Assembly (NCBI GenBank): GCA_003646025.1
Contig: QNDR01000001.1
Span: 3,837 to 67,836 of the forward strand
Origin: Candidatus Fermentibacterota bacterium
GTDB lineage: Bacteria; Fermentibacterota; Fermentibacteria; Fermentibacterales; JCC-6
Direction: 5' to 3'
DNA length: 64,000 nucleotides
In this document: positions 4,174 through 25,896 of the stretch, piece by piece
Layout of the letters: every line of letters starts with the position of its first letter
Numbering within the stretch: position 1 is the stretch's first letter
Made by a program: the position numbers and the translations under genes
The notes under the pieces: generated by a model
The model's input: only the letters and a program-made list of their open reading frames with translations
Databases searched by the model: none
What the model was told of the DNA's origin: nothing

Positions 4174-5805
4174 CTACAGAGTTACACTGAAACAATCGAT
4201 GGTTGAGCAGGCATTTCCGCTGAGAAACCCCCACAAAAAATCTCCGTCCCTGGAAGGATACAGGAATACACCCCAGCCAATCAAGCTGGGCACTCCCCCG
4301 ACCGTGCCCATAAATTCCCCGTTTTGCATGTCATAAATGTCCAGTGAGTAATCTTCTGCAACATCTGTTCGATGATACAGATAGACCAGATATTCTCTTC
4401 CAGGCAGAACGGCGGCGCCCCTGGTGTTTGCTGGAAAAGCATAATTGCCCTGAAAACTGAGGTCTTCCGCATTATACCATTCAACCCCGGTTTCGCTAAA
4501 GCAGTAAAGGTTCCCGTCCAGACCAGCCTGAATATTTGTGTATGAGCCATTGATAGTCCCCAGATATTCAAGGCTGGAGCTTGTGAGAGCTTTTACTCCC
4601 GAACCCGTCAAAACAAACGACCTGTTAAGGTTATCGAATGAGACCGCGGAGGTAAATTCATAAGGTATGGAATCGATTACCTCAAAGGAAGAGGGATCGA
4701 GCACCAGTGCCTTGTTTTCTGACGAGCAGAGAATTCCGGCAGGAGTTTCGAACACACAACTCAAAGCCCGGTCAAAGTCAGCTGTCTGGAGTACACAGGA
4801 AATATCTTCTGAAATATTACACATATGGTAACTCTGGTCGCTGTTCATATAAGTAACAAGTACAGAGCCATCTGGTCTTTCAGCCAGACAGAAAATACGA
4901 TGGTAGTTCATGGACCCGAAGTAATTGCCGGAAACGGCGTCAATGCCTCTTACGGTGCCGGAATTATAGTAATCATTCCAGTAGTGAAAATACACTCTGC
5001 GGGAATCCCTGGATACCAGTCCAAAATCAGTGTAGTCGATGACATTAGCTTCATATATTCCAAAATTCCTGTCCAGGAACCACGGAATATCAGCTCCTGG
5101 AGTAAAACAGACTTCGTTGCTGTAGGAGACGATATCTTCTCCGGCGCTCACTGCCAGCACATAGTACCTTGGAAATCTGTCTGTGATGGTGGAATCAGAG
5201 AACTGGCCCGCACTGTGATCTGTTGTAATCAGCAGTGTATCCCTTGGATAGTTGGAGTGCTCAATATCTTCCTGCCAGGATCTCAGCAGACAGGCTGACT
5301 GGAATGTGCTGTCGGAACAGGCCTCCCACGAAAGAAGGCAGTTCTTAAAAAGAAACTTCTGGTAAGAGAGTTCTCCAGGAGCAGGAAAAGGAGAAGCGGG
5401 AGTCTGAACAACAACCTCATTGCTCCATTTGTCACCGCCCCGGGAAGGTATCGCCTTAACGACGTAGTAGTAATCAGTGTTCCATTCGAGTTCATCTGAG
5501 TCAACCCACAAAGTACTCAGAAGTACAGTGAGTTCCTCCGCACTTTCAGGGTTATTCTCAATCCCCGGTTCCAGACTTCTGTACACCCTGTACTCAAATC
5601 TGGTATCGGGCAGGGGCGCGTTCCATTCAATTGTAAATGCGCAATAGGGAACAGATGCTGCACCCCTGGACAGAGAATCGAGTCCTGTGGAGTCTCCCGT
5701 AAATTCAATTGATGTGATAAAGAAATCAGGAGATGAAGGACCTGCATTGTAGCATGCAGCGAAACACAACACAGACAGAATAATAAAAAGAGCTGGAAAT
5801 CTCAT
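4174..5805 (-). CDS. secreted lipoprotein of unknown function, possibly with FN3/beta-propeller-like repeats
   Basis: The track ORF starts at 5961, but the internal ATG at 5805 has a strong RBS (GGAGGTGCA-ATG) and gives a classic lipoprotein signal MRFPALFIILSVLCFAAC. I recognise no catalytic motifs. Confidence 0.6.
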   Translation of the reverse strand: MRFPALFIILSVLCFAACYNAGPSSPDFFITSIEFTGDSTGLDSLSRGAASVPYCAFTIEWNAPLPDTRFEYRVYRSLEPGIENNPESAEELTVLLSTLWVDSDELEWNTDYYYVVKAIPSRGGDKWSNEVVVQTPASPFPAPGELSYQKFLFKNCLLSWEACSDSTFQSACLLRSWQEDIEHSNYPRDTLLITTDHSAGQFSDSTITDRFPRYYVLAVSAGEDIVSYSNEVCFTPGADIPWFLDRNFGIYEANVIDYTDFGLVSRDSRRVYFHYWNDYYNSGTVRGIDAVSGNYFGSMNYHRIFCLAERPDGSVLVTYMNSDQSYHMCNISEDISCVLQTADFDRALSCVFETPAGILCSSENKALVLDPSSFEVIDSIPYEFTSAVSFDNLNRSFVLTGSGVKALTSSSLEYLGTINGSYTNIQAGLDGNLYCFSETGVEWYNAEDLSFQGNYAFPANTRGAAVLPGREYLVYLYHRTDVAEDYSLDIYDMQNGEFMGTVGGVPSLIGWGVFLYPSRDGDFLWGFLSGNACSTIDCFSVTL

Positions 5806-5899
5806 TGCACCTCCTGTACAGACTGTATCTACCTTTACCCGGGGGCCTGGTTCATTGTTCCTTCGACTGAATCCTGTTTCCATCTGTGCTCCGGGAAAC

Positions 5900-5928
5900 T
5901 TGACATTTTTCGTTTTGCCGTAATAATG
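5900..5928 (+). promoter_or_regulatory. sigma-70-like promoter (TTGACA-N16/17-AATAAT/ATAATG) that would give a leaderless or near-leaderless mRNA for the 5934 gene
   Basis: TTGACA at 5900-5905, an AATAAT/ATAATG -10 around 5922-5928, and ATG at 5934 only about 6 nt downstream. Confidence 0.3.
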
Positions 5929-5933
5929 CCACC

Positions 5934-8081
5934 ATGAATTTACTGCTTCTTTTTGTGGCATTGTGTGGTGTTTCTGTAGAAAAAACTGAGCACGCTCCGG
6001 TGATCGATGGAGTGCTGAACGACCAGTGCTGGCAGGAGTCAGCCTTCTTCGGGGGAGAGTTTACCGCTTTTCAGCCAAGAACAGATGTTCCTCTCTCTCA
6101 GCTGACGGACATTAAACTAGCCTACGATGAACACAATCTGTACGTCTGTGCTTTTATGCATGACAACGATCCATCCAGAATAATACACCAGGTCGGTGCA
6201 AGGGATGATGACCAGCCGGTGGACAAATTCTATATCTACCTCGACACCTTTGATGACAATGCCAACTGTTTTGTGTTTGTGGTTACAGTGGACGGTGTTC
6301 AGCTGGATTACAGAGTAACCGAAGTCGCAGGTTACGACATGAACTGGGATGCCGTGTGGAGTTCCGCCGCTACGGTGTGTGATTCCGGGTGGACGGCTGA
6401 GGTGGCTATCCCATTTTCGGTTCTCAGGTATTCGTCTGCGGAGGAGCAGATCTGGGGTGTTAACTTCGGAAGAAGGGTTTCCTATTCCAACGAAACAGGG
6501 TACCTTTTCAGGATGAAAGAACGAGGAGACGTAGATATTTCCTGTTTTGCCGATCTTACCGGTCTGTGTAATCTTCCTGAAAAGCATCGGGTGGAAATAC
6601 GCCCGTTTGTTGCAGGGAGGCTGCAGTTTACCGGTGATGAAAGCCTGTTCAGCAACCCGTGGGGAAGTGCCGGAGTGGATATTAAGGTGCCCCTTTCCAT
6701 GCAGTCAGTGCTCGACCTTACAGTTCTGCCGGATTTTGGTCAGGTAGAGTCTGATGCGGATCAGGGAAATATCTCGCACTGGGCACCGTGGCTGAGAGAA
6801 AAGAGACCGTTTTTTATGGAGGGCACGGAGATATTTGAGATGCCTTTCAATATGTTTTACTCCAGAAACATTGGATCGGTAGCCATGAATGGAGAGTTGA
6901 TCCCCATCCTTGGTGGGGCGAAGGTTACAGGTACTTCCGGTAAGCTTCGTTACGGTTTTCTTGAGGTGATTACCGACAGGGTCTGGGAAGCTGATACAAT
7001 GCTTGTGGAATCTTCAACTTCATACGGAATTGGTTCTCTGCTTGAGGAATTCAGTCCGGGCAACTGGATGAAAATTTCTGCTACCAGTGTGGATGTTCCC
7101 GGTCAGGGCGGAGGCGAGTACGTGTTTGGAAGATCCGCCTCTTTCAGTGGAATGGCTACCGTGAAGGAATATTTTGAGTTTGAGGGAGAACTCGGTCTTA
7201 CCTGGAACAGATTTCAGGAAGAATCAGAGAATGCTGCTTTCCGTGTTGAAGCCGGATACAATCGGGAATATTTCGATATGAGTATTTCAGCAAGCAAGTC
7301 CGGTGACAATTTTAACCCTTCGTTCATGGGTTACATGCAGGGTAACGGGGTAACCTCGTATTCGTTTGATACAGATATCTCCCGCGATTTTGATTCAGGT
7401 TTCATGAGCGGTGTGTGGCTGGGGCTGGGTTCCAGTTACAGTCTGGATTCTTCAGACCGGAATACCGGAAGCGGAGTTAACATGTGGCTTGGGGGATCAA
7501 CGGTAAGCAGGTATCACATGAACTGCTGGGCCAACTACATTGACCGTTCGTTCGACAGATACGAGGGGCCCGAAGGAAGATGGTACAATGGCGGATTCTC
7601 TGGAGGAGTTTCCGTGTCTACCGACTTCAGAAAGCCAGTTGCCGGCTGGGCAAGTGCCAGTCGCAGTGTCTATCTCGATTCATGGACAAGAAGGTTTTCA
7701 ACAGGGATCATGATAAAACCAACGCCGGTTCTGTCTTTTGATATAGAGCCATCAATGCGTATACAGAAACCGGCTACAAGCTACAACTGGTCGGAAGAGA
7801 GCTGGGAGAACACCTCTTCTGACTGGAAGTCTCTCAGTATTACCGCTTCGTACATGGTAACACCACTGATGAGAATCAGATTCAACGGACAGATGTCCAG
7901 GTTTGAAAGAGTATGGGACACTGAATCCTCTTCGAGCACAAATGACAACATCTGGGTTAATCTTCTGTACAGCTGGGAGTATCTTCCCGGCAGCTGGTTC
8001 CACTTCCTTGTTGGAGAGGTCAGCGAAGGTGAAGAAGACCCGGAGTTCACAGTTTACGCAAAGGTTTCCAGGTTTTTCTAA
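5934..8081 (+). CDS. DUF5916-type outer-membrane protein with an N-terminal CBM9-like carbohydrate-binding domain
   Basis: The N-terminal region matches the pattern of DUF5916/CBM9-like proteins (HAPVIDGVLNDQCWQESAFFGGEFTAFQP...YVCAFMHD..KFYIYLDTFDD). It has a long beta-rich body and a C-terminal aromatic residue (..VSRFF) typical of OM beta-barrels. Confidence 0.5.
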   Translation: MNLLLLFVALCGVSVEKTEHAPVIDGVLNDQCWQESAFFGGEFTAFQPRTDVPLSQLTDIKLAYDEHNLYVCAFMHDNDPSRIIHQVGARDDDQPVDKFYIYLDTFDDNANCFVFVVTVDGVQLDYRVTEVAGYDMNWDAVWSSAATVCDSGWTAEVAIPFSVLRYSSAEEQIWGVNFGRRVSYSNETGYLFRMKERGDVDISCFADLTGLCNLPEKHRVEIRPFVAGRLQFTGDESLFSNPWGSAGVDIKVPLSMQSVLDLTVLPDFGQVESDADQGNISHWAPWLREKRPFFMEGTEIFEMPFNMFYSRNIGSVAMNGELIPILGGAKVTGTSGKLRYGFLEVITDRVWEADTMLVESSTSYGIGSLLEEFSPGNWMKISATSVDVPGQGGGEYVFGRSASFSGMATVKEYFEFEGELGLTWNRFQEESENAAFRVEAGYNREYFDMSISASKSGDNFNPSFMGYMQGNGVTSYSFDTDISRDFDSGFMSGVWLGLGSSYSLDSSDRNTGSGVNMWLGGSTVSRYHMNCWANYIDRSFDRYEGPEGRWYNGGFSGGVSVSTDFRKPVAGWASASRSVYLDSWTRRFSTGIMIKPTPVLSFDIEPSMRIQKPATSYNWSEESWENTSSDWKSLSITASYMVTPLMRIRFNGQMSRFERVWDTESSSSTNDNIWVNLLYSWEYLPGSWFHFLVGEVSEGEEDPEFTVYAKVSRFF

Positions 8082-8088: not shown

Positions 8089-11061
8089 TCAGCAGATCAG
8101 CATTACACCCTTTCCCGTTCTTCCATCCACCATAACCTTTAAGGGTTTATCCGAAGACACATGCCTGGTGTAGTGTGTATCAGAAACTGTTTTCATGGAA
8201 TTCAACAGGTTCCAGTTAACGAAAGACCCTTTTCTGTTGTATGGCACAGTGAAGTAGACCACACCAAGGGAAGTCATATTCTGGAAAAAGTGAGAGCCCT
8301 GAGAGGGATCAATGTTCATGTTTTTCTGGCTTGCTTCAACAATTACTTTTGCATCGCTTATCTGACTCCACGTGACAGGGATACCCAGCCAGGAGTCAGA
8401 TGACCCCCATCTTCCAGGTCCGATGAGAACAAAAGGCCTGCCAGAATCACGCAGTGTATTGTTAAGTGTCTCAACCTCTTTTACTATTTCTTTTGTCTTT
8501 GACGCTGTGAAACTGTCCGGCTTGATGTAAACCACATCGGTAATGTTTCGGATGGTACCGTTACCAAGAGCGGTATCTGTTGCGCACAGCAGGTTGTCAC
8601 TGTCAAGAGTCTCCAGATCAATACTGACAAGGTCGTTGTTTACAACCATTGGTCTTATCTGTAGAAGACTGAAATGGGCCGGCAGCGCACGATTCCTGCC
8701 GAGAGTTACGGCAAATTCTATCTCAACAGAACAGCCCATGGCCTTTTCACCCATCTTCAGAAGAAAGTTGCTTATATCGGCAAGGGGGAAAACTTTGTTT
8801 TTCAGTATGTGTGCAAAGCTCACAACTCTTGGTCCCGGTGTTGTGATCCCGTCCATCACGCGGTCGTTGGGAGCATCATAAGTTGAGCCCAGAAACTCGA
8901 GGGTTCCATCTTTTTCAGCCGTTGCAAGATTGCGGGAAGTTACATACTGATCTTCTTCCAGATTTGAACCCCATGAATTACTGTCCAGCTGAACGGCAAA
9001 AAACTGTTTCTGAGAATTATTCATCATGTCTTTTATTGTACCAAACTGTGGGAATACCCTTGGAAAATCAGGGGTAAACCTTAGAGATACTCCTCCGTCT
9101 ACGATGGTTTTTCCCAGGCCAAGCGCAACATTCACAACACCATCTTCAGGTTTTGCCGAACCTACAGGATAGAAATTATAGGATCGCCCAACGCCGGAAA
9201 AATGCGGGTAGAACAGGTTTCCGTGTTGTCTGCCTGCCACTCTTTGAAGAAGCACTGCCATTTTTTCTTCTTCAACCCGGTGGCCGGTTGCCTTGATGTA
9301 AGATTTAGCGGATTGCATGAATGTTGAAGCGTAAACAAATTTTATCGCACTGGAAAGCTGCTTGAACCTCAATGCCAGACTTCTGGAGTTGTTTGGAAGC
9401 ATCTTTGTGGCGTAAATACCTGCGAAGGGCTGGTATATAGCATCCTCCAACAGGCTTGATGAACGAACCGCCAGCGGTGTGGTAACAGTTTTAACATAAT
9501 CTCTCAAGTCTCCCAGAATAGTGGGGGGAAGTGAGGCTTTCTGGAATGTTCTCTGGATCCGGCTGTCATTTTCACACTCGATTGCAAACTGATGCAGTTT
9601 GTTCATCTTCATGAATTCGTCAAAGAACTCGGTGGTTATTATCAAAGTACTGGGAATTGAAACGGTTACCTTCTTAAACGCGTTTTCTCCCAGGTTGGCT
9701 GCCAGAACTCTGTCAACAAATGCAAGTCCTCTGCCTTTGCCTCCCATTGAACCGCTGCCCAGACGGCTGAAGACAAGATCTTCTTCGTGAAAGGATCTGC
9801 TGTAGGGAACCACATAGCCTCTCCGCTGGTTTGAATTCCATGATCTCACAGCGGCAACAAGAGACTGTTTGATCTCTTCATCTGTGTAATCCTCTTTGAC
9901 GCATTCTGCCATGGTTTCTACAAGTTCCAGTTCTGTCTGAATCTTTATCCATCTGGATAGCTGGCCTGACCGCCAGATTTTTGCGATCGACTCATCTGGA
10001 AGTTTGTCCAGGACCATGCTTAACTCTCTGATACCTGATATTCTCCTCAGAGTTTTACCATTTTTGCCTTTAATACGAAGGTCACCAAAGTCCAGGAAAT
10101 CCACCAGAGCTTTGCTGAAGTCAGCCATAAGAGTTGGTGATTGTTTGTTGAGGAAGCCTACTCCAAGCTCTTTCGCAATAATCTCTCCTTCTGATTCACT
10201 GGTTTGCAGAACAATTGGAACAAGGGGATTCTTTGCCCGTATCTTTTCTATCAGATGTAACCCGGCGTTTTTTTCATGAATGCTCTTCTGATTAAATCTC
10301 ATATCGGTAATTACCCCGACAAGCGAGTTGCTGAAGTGGTTCAGAATTTCTTCAGCCTGTTCCATATTTACAGCAAGAAGAACTTTTGTTCTTGCTCTGC
10401 TCTTCAGTTTACGCATGGTCTGTGATTCCATCTGTTCCAGAATCCGGCGGGATTTCATGTGTATTTCCCGCATTCCCTGGTGCAGGTATTTGGAGTAGAA
10501 AAGAACATCATCTTCCACAAGCAATACGCATGGCACACCTGTTTCGCCGCAGTCGTGGTCGGCGTTTTCAGTGTCTTCAGCCAGCTGGATAATTCCAGGA
10601 ATAATTTCGCCAGAACCCATCCAGTTGAAAAGTCTGTAGGGCTTTTCCCCGGGATGATTGCCGCTGATTCTTCCAAGTTCTTCTGTGTTGTGTGTGAGTA
10701 CCGATACAGCAAGGTCTGGTCGTATTTCATGTACCCTGTCTGCAAATTCACTGAATGTGATATTCTCACCTGTGGACATGCATATAACAAGCTCAAAATG
10801 TGTTCCGGATTTGTTTCCCAGCATCGTCAGTGCTTCAGTTGCATTTGAAACCTGAATGATAACAGGTGCTTTCCCCGAAAAACCTGCCAGACAGGATGCA
10901 TCCAGAATATCCTCCAGCATCCCGTCTTCTTCAACAGTATAAAAATCGTAGAGGCTGCACAGCAGCATTACATTCTGTATCCGGAATCTCCCCAGATCTT
11001 TAAGGAGAAACTCTGTACGGCGCAATTGAAGCTGTCCATCCAACTTGTCTGGAGAGAACAT
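8089..11061 (-). CDS. two receiver (REC-like) domains fused to a PEP-synthase/PPDK N-terminal ATP-grasp (PPDK_N) domain protein; no phospho-His swivel domain
   Basis: REC motifs are present (VLLVEDDVL..., GVITDMRF acceptor Asp, IVLQTSE, GFLNK). The PPDK_N signatures GGKGRGLAFV and VRSSSLLED are present. The C-terminal block reads GPGRWGSSDSW...GSHFFQN. I found no TSHAAI-type His motif. The protein is a paralog of the 12708..15044 product. Confidence 0.6.
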   Translation of the reverse strand: MFSPDKLDGQLQLRRTEFLLKDLGRFRIQNVMLLCSLYDFYTVEEDGMLEDILDASCLAGFSGKAPVIIQVSNATEALTMLGNKSGTHFELVICMSTGENITFSEFADRVHEIRPDLAVSVLTHNTEELGRISGNHPGEKPYRLFNWMGSGEIIPGIIQLAEDTENADHDCGETGVPCVLLVEDDVLFYSKYLHQGMREIHMKSRRILEQMESQTMRKLKSRARTKVLLAVNMEQAEEILNHFSNSLVGVITDMRFNQKSIHEKNAGLHLIEKIRAKNPLVPIVLQTSESEGEIIAKELGVGFLNKQSPTLMADFSKALVDFLDFGDLRIKGKNGKTLRRISGIRELSMVLDKLPDESIAKIWRSGQLSRWIKIQTELELVETMAECVKEDYTDEEIKQSLVAAVRSWNSNQRRGYVVPYSRSFHEEDLVFSRLGSGSMGGKGRGLAFVDRVLAANLGENAFKKVTVSIPSTLIITTEFFDEFMKMNKLHQFAIECENDSRIQRTFQKASLPPTILGDLRDYVKTVTTPLAVRSSSLLEDAIYQPFAGIYATKMLPNNSRSLALRFKQLSSAIKFVYASTFMQSAKSYIKATGHRVEEEKMAVLLQRVAGRQHGNLFYPHFSGVGRSYNFYPVGSAKPEDGVVNVALGLGKTIVDGGVSLRFTPDFPRVFPQFGTIKDMMNNSQKQFFAVQLDSNSWGSNLEEDQYVTSRNLATAEKDGTLEFLGSTYDAPNDRVMDGITTPGPRVVSFAHILKNKVFPLADISNFLLKMGEKAMGCSVEIEFAVTLGRNRALPAHFSLLQIRPMVVNNDLVSIDLETLDSDNLLCATDTALGNGTIRNITDVVYIKPDSFTASKTKEIVKEVETLNNTLRDSGRPFVLIGPGRWGSSDSWLGIPVTWSQISDAKVIVEASQKNMNIDPSQGSHFFQNMTSLGVVYFTVPYNRKGSFVNWNLLNSMKTVSDTHYTRHVSSDKPLKVMVDGRTGKGVMLIC

Positions 11062-11288
11062 AATTGTTGCTACCTCCGGCTGTTTCTGCGTTTCCTGCGG
11101 AAACTGACTGGTGTGAAAGTTGAGAGACTATGAATGCTATATATGCCCCGGGTCAAGTATATACAGCCACCTGTATACCCTATTGACAGAAGCAAGGTTC
11201 TGGCAGTAGTCTACCCTAATCCGTGTGAGAAATCATACGGGATTCGGTTTTCCATTGTTCACCAAAGCTCTTGAGAAGGAGAGTGAGA

Positions 11289-12641
11289 ATGCTTGAGGAA
11301 CTTTACCAGAGTGTAAAAGAGAAGAACCCTGCTCAGCCGGAATTTCACCAGGCTGTTGAAGAGGTTCTTGAATCTCTCGAACCGGTAATTGAGAAACATC
11401 CTGAGTACAGAAGCGCAAAGATACTTGAAAGACTTGTTGAGCCAGAGCGTCTTATCATGTTCCGTGTTCCATGGCTTGATGACAAGGGTGAAATTCAGGT
11501 AAACCGCGGGTACCGCATTGAAATGAACAGTGCGATAGGACCCTACAAGGGCGGTCTTCGTTTCCATCCCTCTGTAAATCTTGGTATCCTTAAGTTTCTC
11601 GCTTTCGAGCAGGTGTTCAAGAATGCCCTCACCACTATCCCCATGGGTGGCGGCAAGGGTGGATCCGATTTCGATCCCAAAGGAAAGTCCGACATGGAAG
11701 TAATGAAATTCTGTCAGTCTTTCATGAGTGAACTTTTCCGTCACATCGGTCCTAACACAGATGTACCTGCAGGAGATATCGGTGTTGGTGGAAGAGAGAT
11801 CGGTTTCATGTTCGGTCAGTACAAAAAGCTTCGCAACGAATGGACCGGTGTTCTCACAGGAAAAGCACTTCAGTACGGTGGAAGCCTTATCAGACCTGAA
11901 GCTACAGGTTACGGTTCCGTGTATTTTGGTGAAGAAATGCTTAAGACCAGAGGTGACAGCTATGCCGGCAAGATCTGTCTTGTTTCAGGATCCGGTAACG
12001 TTGCCCAGTACACCACAGAGAAAATCAACCTTCTCGGCGGAAAAGTTGTTACTCTTTCCGATTCAAGCGGCTACATCTACGATGAAGCCGGTATTGATGC
12101 CGACAAGCTTGCTTATGTTATGGAGCTTAAGAATGTTCGCAGAGGCCGCATAAGCGAATATGCCGAGAAGTATCCCAGTGCTGTTTACACACCAAGAGAC
12201 AACTCTCTTGATTACAATCCACTGTGGGCACACAAGGCAGACTGTGCCTTCCCAAGTGCCACGCAGAATGAAATCAGTGCAAAAGACGCTCAGACAATGG
12301 TTAACAATGGTATAATTCTCGTTTCTGAAGGTGCGAATATGCCCACAGTTCCCGAGGGTGTTAACATTTTCATTGAGAATAAGGTCCTCTACGGGCCAGG
12401 CAAAGCCGCCAACGCAGGTGGTGTATCTACTTCTGGTCTTGAAATGGCACAGAATGCAGTCTTCTCAAGCTGGTCCCGCGAGGAAGTGGATAACAGGCTT
12501 CACAACATAATGATCAGTATTCACAAGCAGGCTTACGATGCTGCAGAGTTCTATGGCCAGCCTGGTAACTATGTTCTTGGTGCCAACGCAGCCGGTTTCC
12601 GCAAGGTTGCCGACGCAATGATGGCCCAGGGCGTGGTGTAG
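11289..12641 (+). CDS. gdhA: glutamate dehydrogenase (NAD(P)+), hexameric GdhA-type
   Basis: Carries the GDH signature GGGKGGSDFDPKGKS and full-length similarity to GdhA. The RBS AAGGAGAG precedes ATG at 11289, so the track ORF start at 11271 is a short upstream extension. Confidence 0.9.
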   Translation: MLEELYQSVKEKNPAQPEFHQAVEEVLESLEPVIEKHPEYRSAKILERLVEPERLIMFRVPWLDDKGEIQVNRGYRIEMNSAIGPYKGGLRFHPSVNLGILKFLAFEQVFKNALTTIPMGGGKGGSDFDPKGKSDMEVMKFCQSFMSELFRHIGPNTDVPAGDIGVGGREIGFMFGQYKKLRNEWTGVLTGKALQYGGSLIRPEATGYGSVYFGEEMLKTRGDSYAGKICLVSGSGNVAQYTTEKINLLGGKVVTLSDSSGYIYDEAGIDADKLAYVMELKNVRRGRISEYAEKYPSAVYTPRDNSLDYNPLWAHKADCAFPSATQNEISAKDAQTMVNNGIILVSEGANMPTVPEGVNIFIENKVLYGPGKAANAGGVSTSGLEMAQNAVFSSWSREEVDNRLHNIMISIHKQAYDAAEFYGQPGNYVLGANAAGFRKVADAMMAQGVV

Positions 12642-12707
12642 TCTTAAAAACAGGTTAATACAGAAGAATCCCCTGCCGAATAGCGGGGGATTCTTTTAGA
12701 TGGTTCA

Positions 12708-15044
12708 TCAGTTCATATAGGCGACTGCCTGATCTGTTTCTCCATTCAGTATCACAGACAAAGATGTATCCGCCGCTATATCGGAAACTCTTATCACCTT
12801 GATTATCCTCGCGAATTCTTCTGTCCCGTGAACAAAGCTTGTGAGAAGGTTTTTTTGCTTTGTTAACAGGTCTTCTCTGAAAATAACATCTTTATCATCC
12901 GGGTACAGAGGCAGGTACTTGATGTCTGCCTCCACAAGATCCTGGAAGAAGTGTGTGCCGAAGGAAAGATCAGGAAGCTGGCCCTTTTTCATTTTTGCAA
13001 CCTCAATAAGCATGGCAGTGTTGTTGATATCGCTGTATCCCACATGCACACCCAGCTTGATGTCTCCCTTGCTGCCCCATCTTCCCGGACCGATAAGGAT
13101 GAATTTCTTCTGGGGAAGGGTGTTGTTGAGTTTACCCACAATTTGTCCTACCTCCAGAAGCTTTTCTCTGCTTTCGATTGTGTCATACTCGGTACCGCTG
13201 ACATACACCATGTACTCAATATTGTGACATGCCCCGGACATGATGTACTTGTTTGCCGTAAACACGATCCTGTCTGTGTCTATACCCGACGGGATCGTAA
13301 TGTCAGCTCTGTCTCTTCCCACGCTCTGGGGCCTGCACTGAAGCAGATACGGAGTATGTATGTCCCGTCCGTAGGCGAATTCAATGTCTACAGGCAGCCC
13401 CATTTCGTCTTCCAGAATACTCAGAACCGTTTTGAAGAAAAGAGGAACCGGGCTTCTTTCCAGAAGGTTGTGGAATGTCAGGATAGTATCTTTCTGCTGA
13501 ATGTTAAGCATTGAACCTGGCGAGAGCTGTATGTGTCCTTCATCGTACAGTGAAACCATGTAGGGAAGGCATGGAATGCCTGCACCGTATTCCCTGATAA
13601 TCTTTTCAGTGCTTACAGTTTCAAGACACCCTTTCTCCAGGTTGACAACATCCATCTCTTTTTGTGAATAGCGTATAAGTTCTTCTGTTGTCACATTGAT
13701 GCGCAGCTTGGGCTGTCCGGGACTCATAAGAACCGGGAAATCCTGCCCTGTTCTGTCTACTGCCCTGGTGCCCAGCCCGGCGACGATCCGCACAATACCG
13801 TCTTCCGCTTTTATTCTTGGCGACCACCGGTAGTCATTTCTGCTGAAGGCCACCCCCGCAAACGGTGGAAAATAGTATTTACCTATTTTGCTTCCAACAA
13901 CCTCCTGAATAAGAATGCCCATCTCTTCATTGAAATCGAGGAGTCCCCTCTCCCGTCGGTATTCTATGGGATCCGGGCCGAAGATACTTGCGTATATCTC
14001 CAGAACAGCGTCTACAAGTGCATCCAGCCGCTGCTGTCTTGTCCCCTGGTTGGCAACGAAAAGGCTCTTGTATTTGCCGGCAAAAGCAGCCCCTGTACTG
14101 TCTTCAAGAAGGCTGGAAGAACGGACGATGATTGGAGTTGTTTCAAAGTAATCAAGTGCATGTTCAAGGCCAGCCAGAACACTGTAGGGCATAATAGAGT
14201 GTTTGAACACCTGTTCAAGAAGGTGGTACTCCTGTCTTATCTCATCCTGTCTTGCATACTTTATTGCCATCATCTCTTCAAGGGCATTGTGACTGATAAA
14301 TTCAAGGACGGCATCAGACGCGATGAACCATGTTTTGGGAACTTTGAGATTTCTGAGAACAGTGTGCGATTTCTTGTAGGTGTTGAGTATCATCTCAGCT
14401 CTGAACAGACCTGCAGCTTTTCCTCCGACCTTTCCGTTCCCGTTGTAGGGTCCGATTGTGTGGTTGATAATATTGGCGAAGTCACTGATACTTACATGCT
14501 TCCGGATGGTGTTTATGTAGTTCAGGTCATCGGTCAACACTCTTCTGGTTAAACCAACAGTTATGTTCTCCCTGTCTCTGGCCTCCATCTTCTTGCTCTG
14601 TTTTGGAAGCATTTCGTACTTATCCAGTGCTTCTCTGAGCTGGCCGAGAGGTACATCCCTTCGGCCTGCAGTGGTAGACAGAAACCGTATTTTTTCATGG
14701 CGAATCCATCTGTGGAGAGCAAGAGTTATCTCTTCAGGAGAAAGAACTTCCTCTGCTACCCTGAATACCTGTGTTGTTATTTCCTCAAGTATTTTGTAGT
14801 CCATCCTCGGGGCGGGCTGGTTCTCACCGTAATTGCTATTGGGACCAGAGGCATCCACCTGTTTCGGGAGCAGTTTTTCCATTATTTCAGAAATCTTTAC
14901 AACTTTCTTCCTGAACAGGTAGTTCAGCATTTTTCTGCTGAGACGGCTCAACAGTTCCGGATCAGTTTCATTGAGAAGTCTCAGAATTATCTTCCACTCC
15001 GGTTTGTTTTCCGGAACCGTATTGTCGCTGTTGTGTGGTGTCAT
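12708..15044 (-). CDS. PEP-synthase/PPDK_N ATP-grasp domain protein without a phospho-His or PEP-binding domain (paralog of 8089..11061)
   Basis: Shares GGKAAGLFRAEM and VRSSSLLEDSTGAAFAGKY motifs and the same C-terminal block (GPGRWGSKGD...GTHFFQD) with the 990-aa paralog. Confidence 0.6.
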   Translation of the reverse strand: MTPHNSDNTVPENKPEWKIILRLLNETDPELLSRLSRKMLNYLFRKKVVKISEIMEKLLPKQVDASGPNSNYGENQPAPRMDYKILEEITTQVFRVAEEVLSPEEITLALHRWIRHEKIRFLSTTAGRRDVPLGQLREALDKYEMLPKQSKKMEARDRENITVGLTRRVLTDDLNYINTIRKHVSISDFANIINHTIGPYNGNGKVGGKAAGLFRAEMILNTYKKSHTVLRNLKVPKTWFIASDAVLEFISHNALEEMMAIKYARQDEIRQEYHLLEQVFKHSIMPYSVLAGLEHALDYFETTPIIVRSSSLLEDSTGAAFAGKYKSLFVANQGTRQQRLDALVDAVLEIYASIFGPDPIEYRRERGLLDFNEEMGILIQEVVGSKIGKYYFPPFAGVAFSRNDYRWSPRIKAEDGIVRIVAGLGTRAVDRTGQDFPVLMSPGQPKLRINVTTEELIRYSQKEMDVVNLEKGCLETVSTEKIIREYGAGIPCLPYMVSLYDEGHIQLSPGSMLNIQQKDTILTFHNLLERSPVPLFFKTVLSILEDEMGLPVDIEFAYGRDIHTPYLLQCRPQSVGRDRADITIPSGIDTDRIVFTANKYIMSGACHNIEYMVYVSGTEYDTIESREKLLEVGQIVGKLNNTLPQKKFILIGPGRWGSKGDIKLGVHVGYSDINNTAMLIEVAKMKKGQLPDLSFGTHFFQDLVEADIKYLPLYPDDKDVIFREDLLTKQKNLLTSFVHGTEEFARIIKVIRVSDIAADTSLSVILNGETDQAVAYMN

Positions 15045-15155
15045 TCAGTTCACCTTTCTCAATTCAGGGATGCTTGTCTGGCTTAATCCTAATTACCGGA
15101 AAGATATAAAAAAAGGACCGGGGTTTTCACCCCGATCCTTGTTGTGGTTCCGGAA

Positions 15156-16439
15156 CTACACCAGACCGCGGAGTCTCGCTGCATTTGCCACCCGGTCGAT
15201 GGCAATCATGTAGGCCGCGTCACGCATGTAGAGGGACTGGCTTTCCGCAAGATCGGCAACGGCATGGAATGCAGTTGTCATCTTTGTATCGAGTTTTGAA
15301 AGAACTTCCTCTTTTTCCCAGTAGTAGTTCATGTTGTTCTGTACCTGCTCGAAATAAGAGCATGTTACTCCGCCGGCATTGCACAGGAAGTCGGGAATGT
15401 TGAAGATTCCTCTTTCTTTCAGCACAACATCAGCCTCAGGTGTTGTAGGGCCGTTGGCACCTTCGGCAACAACCTTTACCCGTGGATGAATTTTGCCCAC
15501 GGTATCGGCGTTGATCTGGTTTTCAAGAGCACCCGGGAGAAGGACATCAGCTTCAGTCTCAATCCATGCATCACCTGGAAGCTGCTCGTAACCTGCTTCA
15601 ATGGCTTTTCCTGCATCAAGTGTACCGAAACGATCCGTTATGCTCATTACAAAATCAAGGTCAATTCCATCCATTTTGCGGTATGTGTAAGCCTTCATGT
15701 CCTTCTGATCCCAGCAGGAAACACAAAGAACCTTTCCGCCGTACTGAATGAAAAGATCTGCAGCATACTGCGTTACATTGCCAAAGCCCTGGCAGGCCAT
15801 TGTGGCACCTTTGATATCTATACCAAGACGCTTAAGTGCTTCTCTGACAGCGTAGATTGCGCCATAACCGGTAGCTTCTGTTCTTCCGAGTGAACCTCCG
15901 CTGCCGACAGGTTTACCAGTGATAACACCAGGGTACTTGCCGCCTTTGAGAGTTTCGTATTCATCCATCATCCACAGCATATGCTGAGGTGTGGTCAGAA
16001 CCACCGGGGCAGGAATGTCATGTACCGGGCCTATGTTTCTCCAGACATTAGGAATCCATCCGCGGCATATCTGTTCCTGCTCGCGCATTGAAAGCTCGTG
16101 AGGATTGCATATAACAACGCCTCGGCCACCACCGAGAGGAATGTCTACAACAGCGCACTTCCATGTCATCCATGTGGCAAGGGCTTTAACTGTGCTGATG
16201 GTTTCATCGGGGTGAAAGCGAATGCCGCCTTTGCACGGGCCGCGAACATCGCTGTGCTGTACTCTGAAGCCGCGGAAAACCTGAACTGATCCGTCATCCA
16301 TGTGTACGGGAATGGTGAAGTGGTACTCTCTCATTGGTTCACGGAGAAAGGCTCTTACACCAGCTTCAAGATCAAGTGTTTCAGCAATCTGATCAAACTG
16401 ATCCTGAGCCATTTTGAAAGCATCGAAACCTTTGGACAT
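15156..16439 (-). CDS. Glu/Leu/Phe/Val dehydrogenase family; glutamate dehydrogenase, short archaeal/Thermotoga type
   Basis: Contains the KGGIRFHP...GGGRGVVICNP...GFGNV Rossmann motif. RBS GGAGG precedes ATG at 16439, and a stem-loop (CCGGCGGGATGCCGG) sits in the leader. Confidence 0.85.
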   Translation of the reverse strand: MSKGFDAFKMAQDQFDQIAETLDLEAGVRAFLREPMREYHFTIPVHMDDGSVQVFRGFRVQHSDVRGPCKGGIRFHPDETISTVKALATWMTWKCAVVDIPLGGGRGVVICNPHELSMREQEQICRGWIPNVWRNIGPVHDIPAPVVLTTPQHMLWMMDEYETLKGGKYPGVITGKPVGSGGSLGRTEATGYGAIYAVREALKRLGIDIKGATMACQGFGNVTQYAADLFIQYGGKVLCVSCWDQKDMKAYTYRKMDGIDLDFVMSITDRFGTLDAGKAIEAGYEQLPGDAWIETEADVLLPGALENQINADTVGKIHPRVKVVAEGANGPTTPEADVVLKERGIFNIPDFLCNAGGVTCSYFEQVQNNMNYYWEKEEVLSKLDTKMTTAFHAVADLAESQSLYMRDAAYMIAIDRVANAARLRGLV

Positions 16440-16743: not shown

Positions 16744-16767
16744 TTGTGATAGTACAAACTATCACAA
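16744..16767. promoter_or_regulatory. 24-bp perfect palindrome TTGTGATAG-TACAAA-CTATCACAA immediately upstream of rex; candidate operator (Rex-like half-sites with non-canonical spacing)
   Basis: Read directly: 9-bp arms are exact reverse complements. The half-sites TTGTGA/TCACAA match Rex half-sites but are separated by 12 bp instead of 6. Confidence 0.4.
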
Positions 16768-16775: not shown

Positions 16776-17426
16776 ATGGAGATTACAGTGATTGCCGTTA
16801 AAGTTTCGGAAAAATCCATACGGAGGCTGAGCCACTATGCCCGATGTCTGCGCCTTGCAAAAAAGAGAGGAGAGTCGGTAATAACCTCCCGGCAGATGGC
16901 CGCGAACTGTGGAATTTCGTCTGCCGCCGTTCGCAGAGACCTGTCAATTTACGGAGAGTTCGGCAAACAGGGTTCCGGTTACAATGTAGACGACCTGCTG
17001 ATAAACATAGAGAATATTCTGGGAACAACTGATCCGCCATCTGTGATTATCGTCGGTGCCGGCAGTATCGGTTGTGCTCTGATGACATCCGGTCTTGCCG
17101 GCACAGGTGGTTACAACTACAGCGCTATTTTCGACAACGATTCTGCAAAAATAGGAAAAGAATGCAATGGCAGGGTTATCAGACCTGTTGAAAAAATTCA
17201 TGAGATTCTGCAGAAGGAGAAGGAAGTTATTGCGGTTATTGCTGTAACCGGTGGATCTGGACAGGCAGCTCTTGACATGCTGGTTGCGGCAGGTTGTAAG
17301 GCAATTCTAAGTTTTACTCTTGAGCCACTCAAGGCTCCAGAAGATGTTGAAATAAAATACGTTGAAGTGTCTACTGAACTCGATGTTCTGACCCATTCCA
17401 TGAGAAAGAAGGAGCGTGTTTACTGA
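16776..17426 (+). CDS. rex: redox-sensing transcriptional repressor Rex
   Basis: N-terminal winged helix (SIRRLSHYARCL) followed by a Rossmann motif (IIVGAGSIGCAL). The stop overlaps the next start (ATGA at 17423-17426), so this is the first gene of the operon. Confidence 0.85.
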   Translation: MEITVIAVKVSEKSIRRLSHYARCLRLAKKRGESVITSRQMAANCGISSAAVRRDLSIYGEFGKQGSGYNVDDLLINIENILGTTDPPSVIIVGAGSIGCALMTSGLAGTGGYNYSAIFDNDSAKIGKECNGRVIRPVEKIHEILQKEKEVIAVIAVTGGSGQAALDMLVAAGCKAILSFTLEPLKAPEDVEIKYVEVSTELDVLTHSMRKKERVY

Positions 17427-17923
17427 TGAAAAGAGCACCAGCCGTTGTTTCCACTTCGGTGATCCTGATGGGTATCTGGCTGAGTCTGACACTCAGCACC
17501 GATATCCAGGAGATTGTGCTGGGTGTGGTGGTTAGTGTTATTGCAGCCATAGCCACAAACGGAGCACTTACCGGAAACCTCTTCCGCCTTCTCAAGCCCC
17601 GAAAGTTCATAGCGGCAATTAGCTACATATTTTATTTTCTTGGCCAGATGATAAAAGCTAATATTGACGTACTGTTCAGAGTGTTCAGGCCCGTTATTCC
17701 TCTTAATCCCGGCATAGTAAAGGTAAACCTGAACTTGAAGAGCGAAAGGGCCAAGGTGATTGTCGCGAACTCAATTACCCTGACACCGGGAACCATAACC
17801 ATAGACATCGCTGGTGACCACATCTTTGTTCACTGGATCTTCCTTCCGGATGGAGATGTTCACGCGGAAACACAGTCGATGGTAGACGGTTTTGCAGGAA
17901 GATTGGAGAAGATCTTTGAGTAA
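17426..17923 (+). CDS. Mrp antiporter subunit E-like (MbxA/MbhA equivalent)
   Basis: MnhE pattern including SITLTPGTITIDIAGDHIFVHW. Confidence 0.8.
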   Translation: MKRAPAVVSTSVILMGIWLSLTLSTDIQEIVLGVVVSVIAAIATNGALTGNLFRLLKPRKFIAAISYIFYFLGQMIKANIDVLFRVFRPVIPLNPGIVKVNLNLKSERAKVIVANSITLTPGTITIDIAGDHIFVHWIFLPDGDVHAETQSMVDGFAGRLEKIFE

Positions 17924-18179
17924 CACATTCATGGTTATTCTTTTTGTGCTTATCGGTGGAGGGCTGTTCCTGGCTTTTCTTCGCCTGATTCTTGGCACAA
18001 AGGCAACAGACAGAGCTGTCGCTCTTGATACAACAACACTGATTACAACAGGATTTCTTGTGCTTGTCGCCTTTCTTCAGGGAAGGTCTATGCTTCTTGA
18101 TGTTGCCCTGGTTTATTCCGTCCTTTCTTTTCTTGGTGTTCTGGCCGTCGCCAGGTATCTCGACGGGGGGCTGAGATGA
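17892..18179 (+). CDS. Mrp subunit F-like (MbxB equivalent)
   Basis: MnhF motif LRLILGTKATDRAVALDTTTLI. The start is either TTG at 17892 or ATG at 17931. Confidence 0.75.
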   Translation: MQEDWRRSLSNTFMVILFVLIGGGLFLAFLRLILGTKATDRAVALDTTTLITTGFLVLVAFLQGRSMLLDVALVYSVLSFLGVLAVARYLDGGLR

Positions 18180-18511
18180 GTTTCACATTTATACTGGCTC
18201 ATGTGCTCACCGGACTGGGGGCATTGTTCCTTTTCGCCAGTGGTGTCGGGGTATTCAGAATGCCGGATGTTTTCAACAAGATGCATGCCGGTACGAAGGC
18301 TACTACTCTGGGCTCTATTCTGTTTCTTTCCGGACTGGGTCTTTTTGAGCCGTCATGGCTGCCGAAACTTCTTCTGGTTGCTGTTTTTATCGTTCTTACA
18401 AATCCGGTGTCCAGCCATGCTCTTGCAAGGGCCGCCCACAACGATGCATCTGAAAAGCCGGACAATCTGGTTATTGATGACCTTGAAGAGAGCAAGGGGG
18501 AAGAACAGTGA
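18176..18511 (+). CDS. Mrp subunit G-like (MbxC equivalent)
   Basis: MnhG motif FRMPDVFNKMHAGTKATTLG; overlaps its neighbours by 4 nt. Confidence 0.8.
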   Translation: MSFTFILAHVLTGLGALFLFASGVGVFRMPDVFNKMHAGTKATTLGSILFLSGLGLFEPSWLPKLLLVAVFIVLTNPVSSHALARAAHNDASEKPDNLVIDDLEESKGEEQ

Positions 18512-18759
18512 ATATGTCTTTGTTTGCTGCAGCTTCCATCGGTACAGGTGTAATGATGATAGTTGCTGCGGTTGCCGCTCTGATAGTGAAAAAACTGATT
18601 TCAGCCATTATCATCGTGGGCTTTGTAAGCCTTTCTGCATCGCTGCTTTTTCTTCTGATGGATGCGCCTGATGTGGCTATTACTGAAGCCAGCATCGGCG
18701 CTGCCATATCCACGGTTATTTTCCTCTGGGGAAGAGGAAAGATAGGAGGGGAACAATGA
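18508..18759 (+). CDS. small DUF4040/MnhB-N-terminal-like membrane subunit (MbxD equivalent)
   Basis: 83-aa two-TM protein in the operon position of MbxD/MbhD. Confidence 0.55.
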   Translation: MNMSLFAAASIGTGVMMIVAAVAALIVKKLISAIIIVGFVSLSASLLFLLMDAPDVAITEASIGAAISTVIFLWGRGKIGGEQ

Positions 18760-19445
18760 TACGCACCATCGTCGGGCTCGCAATTGTTCTTATCCTGATG
18801 GCTATTCTGATAACGGTTGTTGATGATTACACAGTTCCGTCCGCACTTTCAGGAGTGGGAGAATCGTACACAGAAACCGGAGTGGAGGATACTGGGTCTG
18901 TGAACCTTGTCACCGCTGTTGTGGTGGCTTACAGAGGGCTTGATACCCTGGGTGAAGTAGTGGTGCTTTTCAGCGCGTCCACCGCCGTTGTTCTTATCCT
19001 CACACTTATACCCATTGGTTCCGGGCCAACCCCTCCAAGCTCTATTGTTTCGTTCACTGCCGGTATTCTGCCGTCGGCGATCATTCTGTTCGGCATTTAC
19101 ATCATAACCCACGGGCATCTCAGTCCAGGTGGAGGATTTCCCGGCGGTGCGGTGGTCGCTTCGGCATTTCTGCTTGTAATGCTGGGCAGCAACACTGTTC
19201 CCGGGAAATCAAAATTTCTTTCCTCTATTGAGTCTCTTGCAGGTCTTACCTTCGGTCTGCTCGGGTTCTGGGGCATGTTTGCTGCAGGGCAGTTTCTGAA
19301 CAACCTTGTTCTTCCTGCAGGCTCTCCGGGGAGAATAATATCAGCAGGTATTATTCCCCTTATTTCACTGGCCATAGGGGCTAAAGTCGCAAGCGAGTTG
19401 TCTGGGATATTTTCTTCCTACAGAAAAGCGGGAGGTGAGAAATGA
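18756..19445 (+). CDS. Mrp subunit B-like (MbxF equivalent)
   Basis: MnhB motif NLVTAVVVAYRGLDTLGEVVVL. Confidence 0.8.
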   Translation: MIRTIVGLAIVLILMAILITVVDDYTVPSALSGVGESYTETGVEDTGSVNLVTAVVVAYRGLDTLGEVVVLFSASTAVVLILTLIPIGSGPTPPSSIVSFTAGILPSAIILFGIYIITHGHLSPGGGFPGGAVVASAFLLVMLGSNTVPGKSKFLSSIESLAGLTFGLLGFWGMFAAGQFLNNLVLPAGSPGRIISAGIIPLISLAIGAKVASELSGIFSSYRKAGGEK

Positions 19446-19798
19446 GTGCAGAGTATCTGTTTTACTGGTCCATGGCTGCCACAGGTCTGGGATTGATTCT
19501 GATAGGCTTGTGGGGTGTTCTCACAAGAAAACACATACTGAGGATCGCTCTCGCATTTACACTCGCGGACACAGGGGTAAACCTGATCCTGGTTTGGAGT
19601 GGTTTTCTTCCCGGCCGTTCTGCTCCCATAGTTGATTCATCTGTGACCCAGATGGTTGATCCCCTTCCGCAGGCACTTGTTCTTACTTCCATAGTCATAG
19701 GTGTGGCTGTTGCTGCCCTGTTCGTTGTGGTTGGTGTGCTGGCCTCGCGTAAATCCGGCTCTGCCGATATTCGACACATGAAGGAGCTGAAATGGTAA
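19442..19798 (+). CDS. Mrp subunit C / NuoK-like (MbxG equivalent)
   Basis: MnhC/NuoK-like sequence ILRIALAFTLADTGVNLILVW. Confidence 0.8.
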   Translation: MSAEYLFYWSMAATGLGLILIGLWGVLTRKHILRIALAFTLADTGVNLILVWSGFLPGRSAPIVDSSVTQMVDPLPQALVLTSIVIGVAVAALFVVVGVLASRKSGSADIRHMKELKW

Positions 19799-23617: not shown

Positions 23618-23626
23618 GAGGCTGTG

Positions 23627-24190
23627 ATGTACTGTAATCAACCACCGAAGAAGCCGGGAGACAAAAAAGAGGTTCTTCAGAAGATCACCAACATGGCCCG
23701 GGCAAACAGCCTGTGGGTCACCGCCTACGGTACAGGCTGCGGCTCCATCGAGCTCCGGCCTCTGGGCACTTCAAGGTTTGACATGGAGCGGTTCGGGATA
23801 GCCATGCGGCCAACTCCAAGGCAGGCGGATGTGCTGATCATCTCCGGGTATCTGGCAACAAAAACCCTGAAGAGAGTGATCAGAGTTTACGAGCAGATCC
23901 AGGATCCCAAGTACATCATGGCCCTCGGCTCATGCACCATCAACGGCGGAATGTATTTTGATTCCTACAACACACTGAATGTTCTGGACAAGTACCTTCC
24001 GGTGGATGTGTATGTCATGGGATGTATGCCAAGACCGGAGGCTATAATTGATGGTTTCAGTCTGCTGATGAAGAAGATAAAGGAAGGCAGAGCTGTGGGC
24101 TGGAAGCACTACAGGGAAAATTTGGATTACTACCGGGAAAACCAGAAACAGATCATCAAAAACTGGGACCTTCCCGATTACAACTGGTAA
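23627..24190 (+). CDS. NuoB / [NiFe]-hydrogenase small-subunit-like protein (MbxJ equivalent)
   Basis: Candidate proximal-cluster Cys ligands: GTGCGSIELRP, LGSCTINGG and VMGCMPRPE. RBS AGGAGG precedes the GTG-ATG at 23624-23629. Confidence 0.8.
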   Translation: MYCNQPPKKPGDKKEVLQKITNMARANSLWVTAYGTGCGSIELRPLGTSRFDMERFGIAMRPTPRQADVLIISGYLATKTLKRVIRVYEQIQDPKYIMALGSCTINGGMYFDSYNTLNVLDKYLPVDVYVMGCMPRPEAIIDGFSLLMKKIKEGRAVGWKHYRENLDYYRENQKQIIKNWDLPDYNW

Positions 24191-24201
24191 GGGGTGAGAA
24201 T

Positions 24202-25889: not shown

Positions 25890-25896
25890 GAAACTT

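Follow-up and report, generated by a model that had tools for sequence, protein, structure and literature searches.

A GDH-linked pair of PPDK_N ATP-grasp paralogs that share a previously undescribed C-terminal domain

Two paralogous proteins with a PPDK_N ATP-grasp domain, each beside a different type of glutamate dehydrogenase (GDH), are encoded in a 64,000-nt stretch of a Candidatus Fermentibacterota genome (GenBank assembly GCA_003646025.1, contig QNDR01000001.1, positions 3,837 to 67,836 of the forward strand; hereafter, the window). Protein A neighbors a gdhA-type GDH (GDH1) and protein B a short/archaeal-type GDH (GDH2), and the linkage of the two protein families to GDH genes is tight, ancient, and specific to GDH type. 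Both proteins retain intact ATP-site residues and end in a C-terminal domain (CTD) of ~200 amino acids (aa) that is previously undescribed, has no detectable sequence or fold relative, and contains an invariant histidine. We tentatively propose, with a probability of roughly 40%, that A and B, under the control of signals, regulate their cognate GDHs by ATP-dependent phosphotransfer and that they act through this histidine.

Homologs of A and B occur in three core forms: A(REC), of ~990 aa and represented in the window by A, in most members of which the receiver (REC) domain PF00072 is recorded; A(short), of ~590 aa and consisting of the ATP-grasp domain and CTD only; and B. A scan of GTDB species representatives with an alignment of B returned at least 597 matches, of which 80 loci from ~20 phyla were kept, and a scan of metagenome contigs with an alignment of A returned at least 585 matches, of which 80 A(REC) loci were kept. 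The B loci derive from Riflebacteria, Caldisericota, Calditrichota, Acidobacteriota, Zixibacteria, Ignavibacteria, Bacteroidota, Planctomycetota, Bacillota, Chloroflexota, and Cloacimonadota, among others, as well as from the archaeal Thermoplasmata and Methanomassiliicoccales. GDH genes in these loci were scored by tblastn with the four window proteins: a GDH lies within 10 kb in 51 of the 55 B loci with at least 5 kb of upstream sequence (GDH2-type in 50 of those), and the main co-directional orders are gdh2, A(short), B (n = 24) and gdh2, B (n = 17). Upstream sequence of at least 1.6 kb is available for 60 A(REC) loci; GDH1 lies within 600 nt in 36 of these, the usual order being GDH1 followed by A(REC) after a gap of 130 to 300 nt. 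The specificity is mutual: B occurs with GDH2 in 63 loci versus GDH1 in 17, and A(REC) occurs with GDH1 in 46 of its 80 loci versus GDH2 in 9 (Fisher p = 3.5e-13). In single look-ups, a GDH lies directly upstream in two of four A(REC) homologs, and the first two distant homologs inspected were a Caldisericia contig reading GDH2-A-B-GDH1 and a Fermentibacteria chromosome reading B-x-GDH1-A. An earlier note on this DNA had remarked that each paralog sits beside a different GDH; that pairing proves to be conserved well beyond close relatives and in both prokaryotic domains. Apart from the coenzyme, GDHs of both types bind the same small molecules, and the type-specific pairing therefore argues for recognition at the protein level.

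The window carries both conserved pairs. GDH2 immediately precedes B on the same strand, with a gap of 111 nt, which is the conserved gdh-then-B arrangement, and GDH1 and A are divergently transcribed, as in two of the surveyed loci (L005 and L013); the GDH1 start codon, an ATG at 11289, is preceded by a GGAG ribosome-binding site. GDH1 scores 748 bits against the gdhA-type profile NF006929 (cut-off, 536), with both ELFV domains and the lysines of GP-x-KGG and GGGKGG all present, and GDH2, which also has both ELFV domains and a GPCKGG motif, is nearest to the archaeal/short-type GDHs at 477 bits, below their cut-off of 750. The closest homologs are found in Candidatus Fermentibacteria and Sabulitectum, and a 99.5%-identical public contig (GCA_029932975.1, our locus L101) has the same gene order.

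A and B belong to the PPDK_N ATP-grasp superfamily and are not phosphoenolpyruvate (PEP) synthases (PEPS), pyruvate, phosphate dikinases (PPDKs), or rifampicin phosphotransferases (RPHs). They align with each other by BLASTP at 29% identity over 603 columns (E 1e-51), the C-terminal block included, and both contain the motifs GGKG/GGKA, VRSSSLLED, GPGRWGS, and G[ST]HFFQ. The sizes, positions, signatures, and common C-terminal block described in the earlier note agree with the open reading frames (ORFs), with BLASTP, and with our own reading of the sequences. Its label of "PPDK_N-only paralogs" needs qualification. The paralogy is real and PF01326 (PPDK_N) is the sole Pfam domain of either protein (A: E 1e-38, 133.6 bits, profile positions 3 to 314 of 328; B: E 6e-53, 180.6 bits, positions 3 to 316; gathering score, 27), but the first 430 aa of A also hold a putative pseudo-receiver and a probable receiver. 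Besides the profile match, both proteins have the ATP/Mg2+ ligands expected of the superfamily. Across 49 A-family sequences (alignment A2), K442, R533, E780/E782, Q801, and R803 are invariant, as are K209, R308, S327, E555, Q569, and R571 across 45 B-family sequences. Mutagenesis of RPH has assigned the positioning of the ATP polyphosphate to Lys22, Arg117, and Thr136 (PMC4844700); the equivalents are K209, R308, and S327 in B (by alignment to RPH 5hv6) and K442 and R533 in A, with the EF...LQxR motif kept. The best Foldseek matches of the B ATP-grasp domain are likewise RPH structures (5hv1 and 5hv3, E 1e-11), followed by HpeI (9goj), PEPS, and PPDK, within a range of E 1e-11 to 1e-5.

Beyond this domain the resemblance to named enzymes ends. 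Neither A nor B has a Pfam match to the PEP-utilizer swivel domain (PF00391) or to the PEP/pyruvate TIM barrel (PF02896), the latter also being without a match in A(short), in the longer B homologs described below (B-long), and in fused forms. In the NCBIfam profiles for PEPS, RPH, and PigC/RedH, it is mainly the N-terminal ATP-grasp part that is matched (up to profile position 336 of 784), at 18 to 58 bits against cut-offs of ~500 to 1700: the PEPS/PPDK equivalogs score 32 to 58 bits (cut-offs, 598 to 740) and the RPH profile NF041857 24 to 32 bits (cut-off, 999), matched only over positions ~33 to 222. Foldseek aligns B to RPH over only ~400 to 450 columns at a TM of ~0.3, and the RIF-binding domain of RPH has no detectable counterpart.

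These absences bear on the most mundane explanation of the linkage, namely, that adjacency to gdh is due to nothing more than shared expression in amino-acid catabolism or gluconeogenesis, with A and B serving, for example, as PEP-synthase-like enzymes during growth on glutamate. The closest named families are indeed PEP synthases, and GDH-linked catabolic genes lie nearby in some loci. Yet no examined member has a TIM barrel, without which PEP synthesis by the known route is not possible, and the combination of ~20 phyla, type specificity, and a start/stop overlap between A(short) and B (two loci) is tighter than is usual for loose co-regulation. We regard this explanation as very improbable.

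For comparison of the CTD, 14 B-family sequences (C-terminal ~200 aa) and 19 A-family sequences (C-terminal ~185 aa) were aligned (A3). The two families have 15 invariant positions in common, including G-x-G-R-W-G, a Glu, S-x-G-x-H-F-F, and a Tyr, and the histidine (H924 in A and H698 in B) is conserved in all 33 of these diverse sequences; its potential as a phosphocarrier had not been considered in the earlier note. Modeled in isolation with AlphaFold2 (AF2), the B CTD is predicted with confidence (pLDDT 90.2, pTM 0.89) as an alpha/beta domain with the histidine at the N terminus of a helix (residues 123 to 131). A CTD profile search of 1.84 billion representative proteins retrieved 2531 representatives, with a PPDK_N partner in every architecture inspected. 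A Pol-beta nucleotidyltransferase (NTase) motif that seemed to lie within the CTD (GS...D.D) was rejected because its acidic residues are not conserved between the A and B families.

The earlier note found neither a phosphohistidine swivel nor a TIM barrel and asked whether the C-terminal block might be a cryptic swivel domain. All searches agree with its first observation: a conventional PF00391 swivel with its GG-x-T-S-H-A-A motif is not found in A or B; Pfam searches with the C-terminal fragments alone give no match at E ≤ 10; the CTD profile retrieves nothing relevant among Protein Data Bank (PDB) sequences (best E 0.54, unrelated proteins); Foldseek of the CTD model against the PDB reaches E 0.15 and TM ≤ 0.3 at best, with no PPDK, PEPS, EI, or RPH entry; and hhalign against 16 swivel domains (from Escherichia coli PpsA, PtsI, and plasmid-borne PEP-utilizers) gives a probability of 0.7% and a P of 0.086 over 12 columns. 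What is left for a conventional or cryptic swivel is a co-linear, motif-level resemblance. The CTD could nevertheless be a very divergent swivel domain, in which case A and B would by ancestry be RPH-type dikinases built of an ATP-grasp and a swivel, an origin compatible with any of the functional readings considered here. By eye, the CTD is co-linear with E. coli PpsA: ALGNGxI..VVYV pairs with AIGHRIGAGPVKVI, FVLIGPGRW with VLVTDMTDPDW, VIVE with AIVT, and G[ST]HFFQ with RTCHAAI; in addition, VMVDGRTGKGV in the CTD resembles the swivel consensus VxVDGxxGxV (PpsA itself reads VTVSCAEGDTGYV), and the sole segment aligned by hhalign is this terminal VxVDGxxG motif. In both the CTD and PpsA, the histidine follows an [ST] residue at the N terminus of a helix, and the place of the CTD, straight after the ATP-grasp domain or at the C terminus, matches that of the swivel in PEPS and RPH. 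Every statistical test failed, however, and a swivel domain has only about half the length of the CTD. We consider this descent rather unlikely.

Invariance of the ATP site and of the CTD histidine also bears on whether A and B catalyze anything at all. They could instead be noncovalent regulators that bind ATP or AMP as sensors of energy charge or of a signal and modulate GDH by contact alone, with the CTD as a docking domain; type-specific adjacency and signaling-type accessory domains would fit a regulator of any kind, and the CTD shows no known phosphocarrier fold. Against this, the catalytic Lys, Arg, Ser/Thr, Glu, Gln, and Arg of the ATP-grasp domain are invariant in both families over a wide divergence, as is the motif that holds the histidine, a pattern that suggests chemistry rather than binding alone and makes a purely noncovalent role quite unlikely.

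Several lines of evidence tie the A-type and B-type proteins to each other and to signaling. Acidobacteria and Zixibacteria have an operon of gdh2, A(short), and B, in which the stop of A(short) overlaps the start of B in the two loci inspected, and natural A(short)+B fusions (P0241, P0243, and P0294; 1484 to 1654 aa) contain two PPDK_N and two CTD stretches; these fusions and overlaps argue that A-type and B-type proteins act together, probably as a complex. One fusion, P0243, ends in a nucleotidyltransferase domain, and such a domain is widespread among B proteins: most B homologs are ~1060 aa long and, relative to the B of the window, which is the short form, have an extra N-terminal region of ~150 aa and a C-terminal Pol-beta/MNT-type NTase (PF01909, E 5e-7), the N-terminal extension being present in 67 and the NTase in 61 of the 80 B loci. 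The N-terminal domain of B-long (~130 aa, with the motifs WQYP...ARI.Y...GPFLxEE; L023:9542-10000 and L035:9527-10000) has no Pfam match; four tandem copies of it precede REC-form proteins in P0284 (aa 1 to 520) and P0311 (aa 1 to 560), and since it is repeatable in tandem, it behaves as a sensor module. Clustering of all ORFs further showed that a calcineurin-like metallophosphoesterase (PF00149, ~285 aa) follows B-long directly in 22 to 25 of the 80 loci, archaeal ones included (e.g., L035:12728-13645 and L022:5418-6281). A role in antiphage defense was considered and rejected: PADLOC models give no match for A or B and only weak, generic NTase/phosphoesterase matches for B-long and the phosphoesterase.

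The signaling module of A itself is probably a receiver. PF00072 stays below threshold in this copy (19 bits, E 0.0016; gathering score, 30.2), and the residues of the pocket are present, with the acidic E183-D184-D185, the putative phosphoacceptor D253, T287, and K306; in alignment A2, E183 and K306 do not vary, and D253 is kept in at least 90% of the sequences. The preceding block, with S36, D46, W147, and G149 invariant and no Pfam match, may be a degenerate receiver, judging by its sequence pattern only. The N-terminal domain specific to the B family is predicted to be all-helical; it has nothing significant in Pfam and its conserved residues include W17, R34, R167, and R168. Coordinates are listed in Table 1.

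Table 1. Genes, domains, and variant cluster in the GDH-linked region (positions in the window)
Feature	Positions	Strand	Basis and remarks
Protein A, 990 aa	8089-11061	-	ORF; pseudo-receiver, receiver, linker, PPDK_N ATP-grasp, C-terminal His domain; REC form of A family
A aa ~25-150, degenerate (pseudo-)receiver-like domain (putative)	10612-10989	-	Conserved block in alignment A2; boundaries approximate
A aa ~178-305, receiver (REC) domain (probable)	10147-10530	-	Sub-threshold PF00072; residues and conservation
A aa 438-810, PPDK_N ATP-grasp nucleotide-binding domain	8632-9750	-	Pfam, alignment A2
A aa 811-990, CTD	8092-8631	-	BLASTP, alignments; GPGRWGS, GSHFFQ; invariant H924 (codon 8290-8292)
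GDH1, gdhA-type (NADP-type) glutamate dehydrogenase	11289-12641 (ORF 11271/11289-12641)	+	Pfam ELFV_dehydrog and ELFV_dehydrog_N; NF006929
Protein B, 778 aa	12708-15044	-	Helical N-domain, PPDK_N ATP-grasp, CTD; short form of B family
B aa 1-204, all-helical N-terminal domain specific to B family (predicted)	14433-15044	-	AF2 model, helices 16-194; no Pfam match
B aa 205-580, PPDK_N ATP-grasp domain	13305-14432	-	Pfam, alignment, Foldseek
B aa 581-778, CTD	12711-13304	-	Alignment A3, AF2 model; GPGRWGS, GTHFFQ; invariant H698 (codon 12951-12953)
GDH2, 427 aa, short/archaeal-type glutamate dehydrogenase	15156-16439	-	Both ELFV domains; NCBIfam
13 nucleotide differences from L101, within GDH2	15998-16134 (137 nt)	-	Many transversions; seven residues changed

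On our preferred reading, the ATP-grasp domain would bind ATP and phosphorylate the CTD histidine, the group transferred probably being the beta-phosphate, as it is in PPDK and RPH; the CTD would then pass this phosphoryl group to a target, most likely the cognate neighboring GDH or a ligand bound to it. GDH activity would in this way be switched by signals that enter through the receiver domain of A here and through the sensor-like N-terminal domain in homologs, with A-type and B-type proteins acting as a complex; in those homologs, the NTase domain and the neighboring metallophosphoesterase could write and erase a modification. The suggestion in the earlier note, that A and B have a functional link to GDH and are RPH-like phosphotransferases or regulators rather than PEP synthases, is the best fit to the lack of a swivel and to the conserved adjacency, the biochemical mechanism being what we infer. 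A more far-reaching version, drawn by analogy with the role of GlnE/GlnD for glutamine synthetase and in our view rather unlikely, is that these systems constitute an unrecognized, ancient covalent-modification switch for GDH, in which a heteromeric, dikinase-like pair would phosphorylate the cognate GDH through a new phosphohistidine carrier, the fused NTase could nucleotidylate it in most lineages, the metallophosphoesterase would reverse the modification, receiver or sensor domains would exert control, and separate writers would serve the assimilatory (gdhA-type) and the catabolic (short-type) GDH.

A number of points weigh against phosphotransfer to GDH. Phosphohistidine formation, modification of GDH, and physical interaction are all predictions, and bacterial hexameric GDHs are not known to be controlled by phosphorylation. 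The CTD shows no detectable kinship to known phosphocarrier domains, and its histidine might serve as a ligand of a metal or substrate instead. In the full-length AF2 model of B, which is of moderate confidence (pLDDT 76.6), the two invariant CTD loops are predicted at a pLDDT below 50, so that the placement of the histidine relative to the ATP site is of low confidence. Some loci have no GDH nearby (~38% of well-flanked A(REC) loci and ~7% of B loci). The phosphoesterase accompanies B in under a third of loci, mostly in convergent orientation. Finally, the B of the window does not have the sensor-like N terminus and NTase C terminus of most homologs, and no metallophosphoesterase, NTase, or sensor-like domain was found anywhere in this window.

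The nature of the acceptor is where a further alternative arises. A and B could be small-molecule dikinases that phosphorylate or ATP-activate a GDH-linked metabolite (a 2-oxoglutarate or glutamate derivative, a nicotinamide coenzyme, or a signaling compound), with the CTD and the helical domain of B forming the acceptor site, in the manner of RPH, PigC, HpeHI, and phenylphosphate synthase. All characterized relatives matched here (PEPS, PPDK, RPH, PigC/RedH, and HpeI) act on small molecules; the extra, conserved helical domain of B (~200 aa) could bind a substrate; and catabolic genes surround some loci, such as L105, with genes for malic enzyme, ADP-forming acyl-CoA synthetase, and 2-oxoacid:ferredoxin oxidoreductase, and L001, with GltD/Nfn-like genes. 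However, type-specific pairing is hard to bring about through a shared metabolite, except for a coenzyme that differs between the GDH types; partners of the receiver, sensor-like, NTase, and phosphoesterase kinds usually accompany regulatory switches rather than pathway enzymes; and A(short), with its ATP-grasp domain and CTD, has no further domain for an acceptor. Taken together, we find a small-molecule acceptor unlikely.

Comparison with known systems places A and B apart from each. RPH and the PEP-synthase-like dikinases (the PRK06241 group and PigC/RedH) are the nearest, sharing the best structural match of the ATP-grasp domain, its position ahead of a C-terminal His domain, and the lack of a TIM barrel; A and B differ from them in having neither a detectable PF00391 swivel nor a middle domain like the RIF-binding one, in their NCBIfam scores (24 to 48 bits versus cut-offs of 880 to 1700), in a CTD without relatives, and in their association with GDH and signaling domains instead of antibiotic or pigment genes. 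PpsA and PPDK share the N-terminal PF01326 ATP-grasp domain and its catalytic motifs but have both the swivel and the TIM barrel that are missing here. Phenylphosphate synthase and the HpeHI-type 4-hydroxyacetophenone dikinase (HpeI being a top fold match) likewise consist of separate PPDK_N units that work with a partner, with two paralogous subunits encoded side by side. Their partner subunit carries a conventional swivel His domain, whereas A and B each have their own ATP-grasp domain and their own novel CTD and are found near GDH rather than genes of aromatic catabolism. GlnE and GlnD offer a functional analogy only: there, too, an enzyme of ammonium assimilation is governed by multidomain modifiers that use ATP or other NTPs, and many B homologs carry a Pol-beta-type NTase, with a possible eraser phosphoesterase adjacent; however, there is no homology of the cores, the target would be GDH rather than GS/PII, the modification is proposed, and the B of the window has no NTase. 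The architecture of A is exactly the REC-PPDK combination listed in the response-regulator census of Galperin et al. (PMC5847659), where it appears without a function, a CTD, or a linkage to GDH; receiver-form homologs are reported there in Bacteroides. Searches of open-access papers and bioRxiv found no published link of these families to GDH and no description of the CTD; a Bacteroides locus considered as a candidate (BT1970-1973) proved to be wrong, BT1971 being a catalase.

GDH stands at the junction of carbon and nitrogen metabolism, and in the many anaerobes with two GDH types, these could run against each other in a futile cycle. To our knowledge, little is known about the post-translational control of bacterial and archaeal hexameric GDHs. 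A family that is present in at least ~600 species representatives, almost always together with one GDH type, is a concrete and testable candidate for such missing control, and if the regulatory reading is right, its biological role could be new. Confirmation would extend the PEPS/PPDK/RPH dikinase superfamily by a new class of acceptor and a new carrier domain and provide a function for thousands of genes now labeled "PEP/pyruvate-binding domain-containing protein," "histidine kinase," or "hypothetical."

Variation in the layout of the loci was also observed. In two metagenome loci (L112 and L119), the whole pair is duplicated in tandem as GDH1-A(REC)-GDH1-A(REC), and other metagenome contigs read GDH1-A(REC)-GDH2, suggesting a larger supercluster that joins both pairs. 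Conversely, a JGI contig (3300033146, L102) whose B is 92% identical to that of the window retains GDH2-B-GDH1 and a DUF5916/CBM9 gene, but the REC-form A gene that separates them in the window is missing; among close relatives, the A gene is hence an insertion/deletion polymorphism.

The gdh2 copy in the window is itself unusual. Relative to L101, the clustered differences listed in Table 1 change GGGKGGVICD to GGGRGVVICN, thereby replacing the lysine of a catalytic motif, and PAPDVM to PAPVVL, replacing an aspartate that we take to be a catalytic GDH residue. Among 66 GDH2-type genes scored, the lysine of GG[GAS]KGG is kept in 64 (one has Met and one was unscorable), and PAPDVM is present in five of five aligned homologs. 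The substitutions represent a local error in the assembly or consensus or else an inactivated allele, and conclusions on A and B are unaffected. A second cluster of ~12 substitutions (17235-17440) lies inside the gene at 16776-17426; over the 14.6 kb compared, 72 positions differ from L101 in all, and this patchy divergence suggests a mixed-strain assembly or recombination.

Flanking genes complete the picture. On the A side, positions 4174-8081 encode two proteins that appear unrelated to the GDH finding, one of 595 aa with a weak fn3 match and a DUF5916/CBM9-like one of 715 aa. Farther out, on the reverse strand at 219-3875, is the gene for a protein of 1218 aa that combines TPR repeats with a sigma-54 interaction (AAA+) domain. 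Sigma-54 promoters were sought and rejected as a feature of the system: none occurs in the gdh/A and rex/gdh2 intergenic regions, and the 41 observed in the window as a whole, versus 39 expected, are attributable to chance. On the GDH2 side, the divergent gene at 16776-17426 combines Put_DNA-bind_N and CoA_binding domains, as Rex-type redox-sensing repressors do, and between it and gdh2 is a perfect inverted repeat, TTGTGATAG-N6-CTATCACAA (16744-16767), whose half-sites resemble the Rex operator (TTGTGA...TCACAA); this arrangement suggests NADH/NAD+-dependent control of the gdh2/Rex-like region. Downstream of the Rex-like gene, a co-directional series (17426-27666) encodes Mrp/Mbh-type antiporter-like subunits (MnhE, MnhB/MbhE, and Proton_antipo_M), then NuoH-, NuoB-, and NuoD-like proteins and a GltD/NfnB-like protein with Fer4_20 and Pyr_redox_2 domains (25897-27666), and resembles a respiratory complex of the membrane-bound hydrogenase or Mbx kind.

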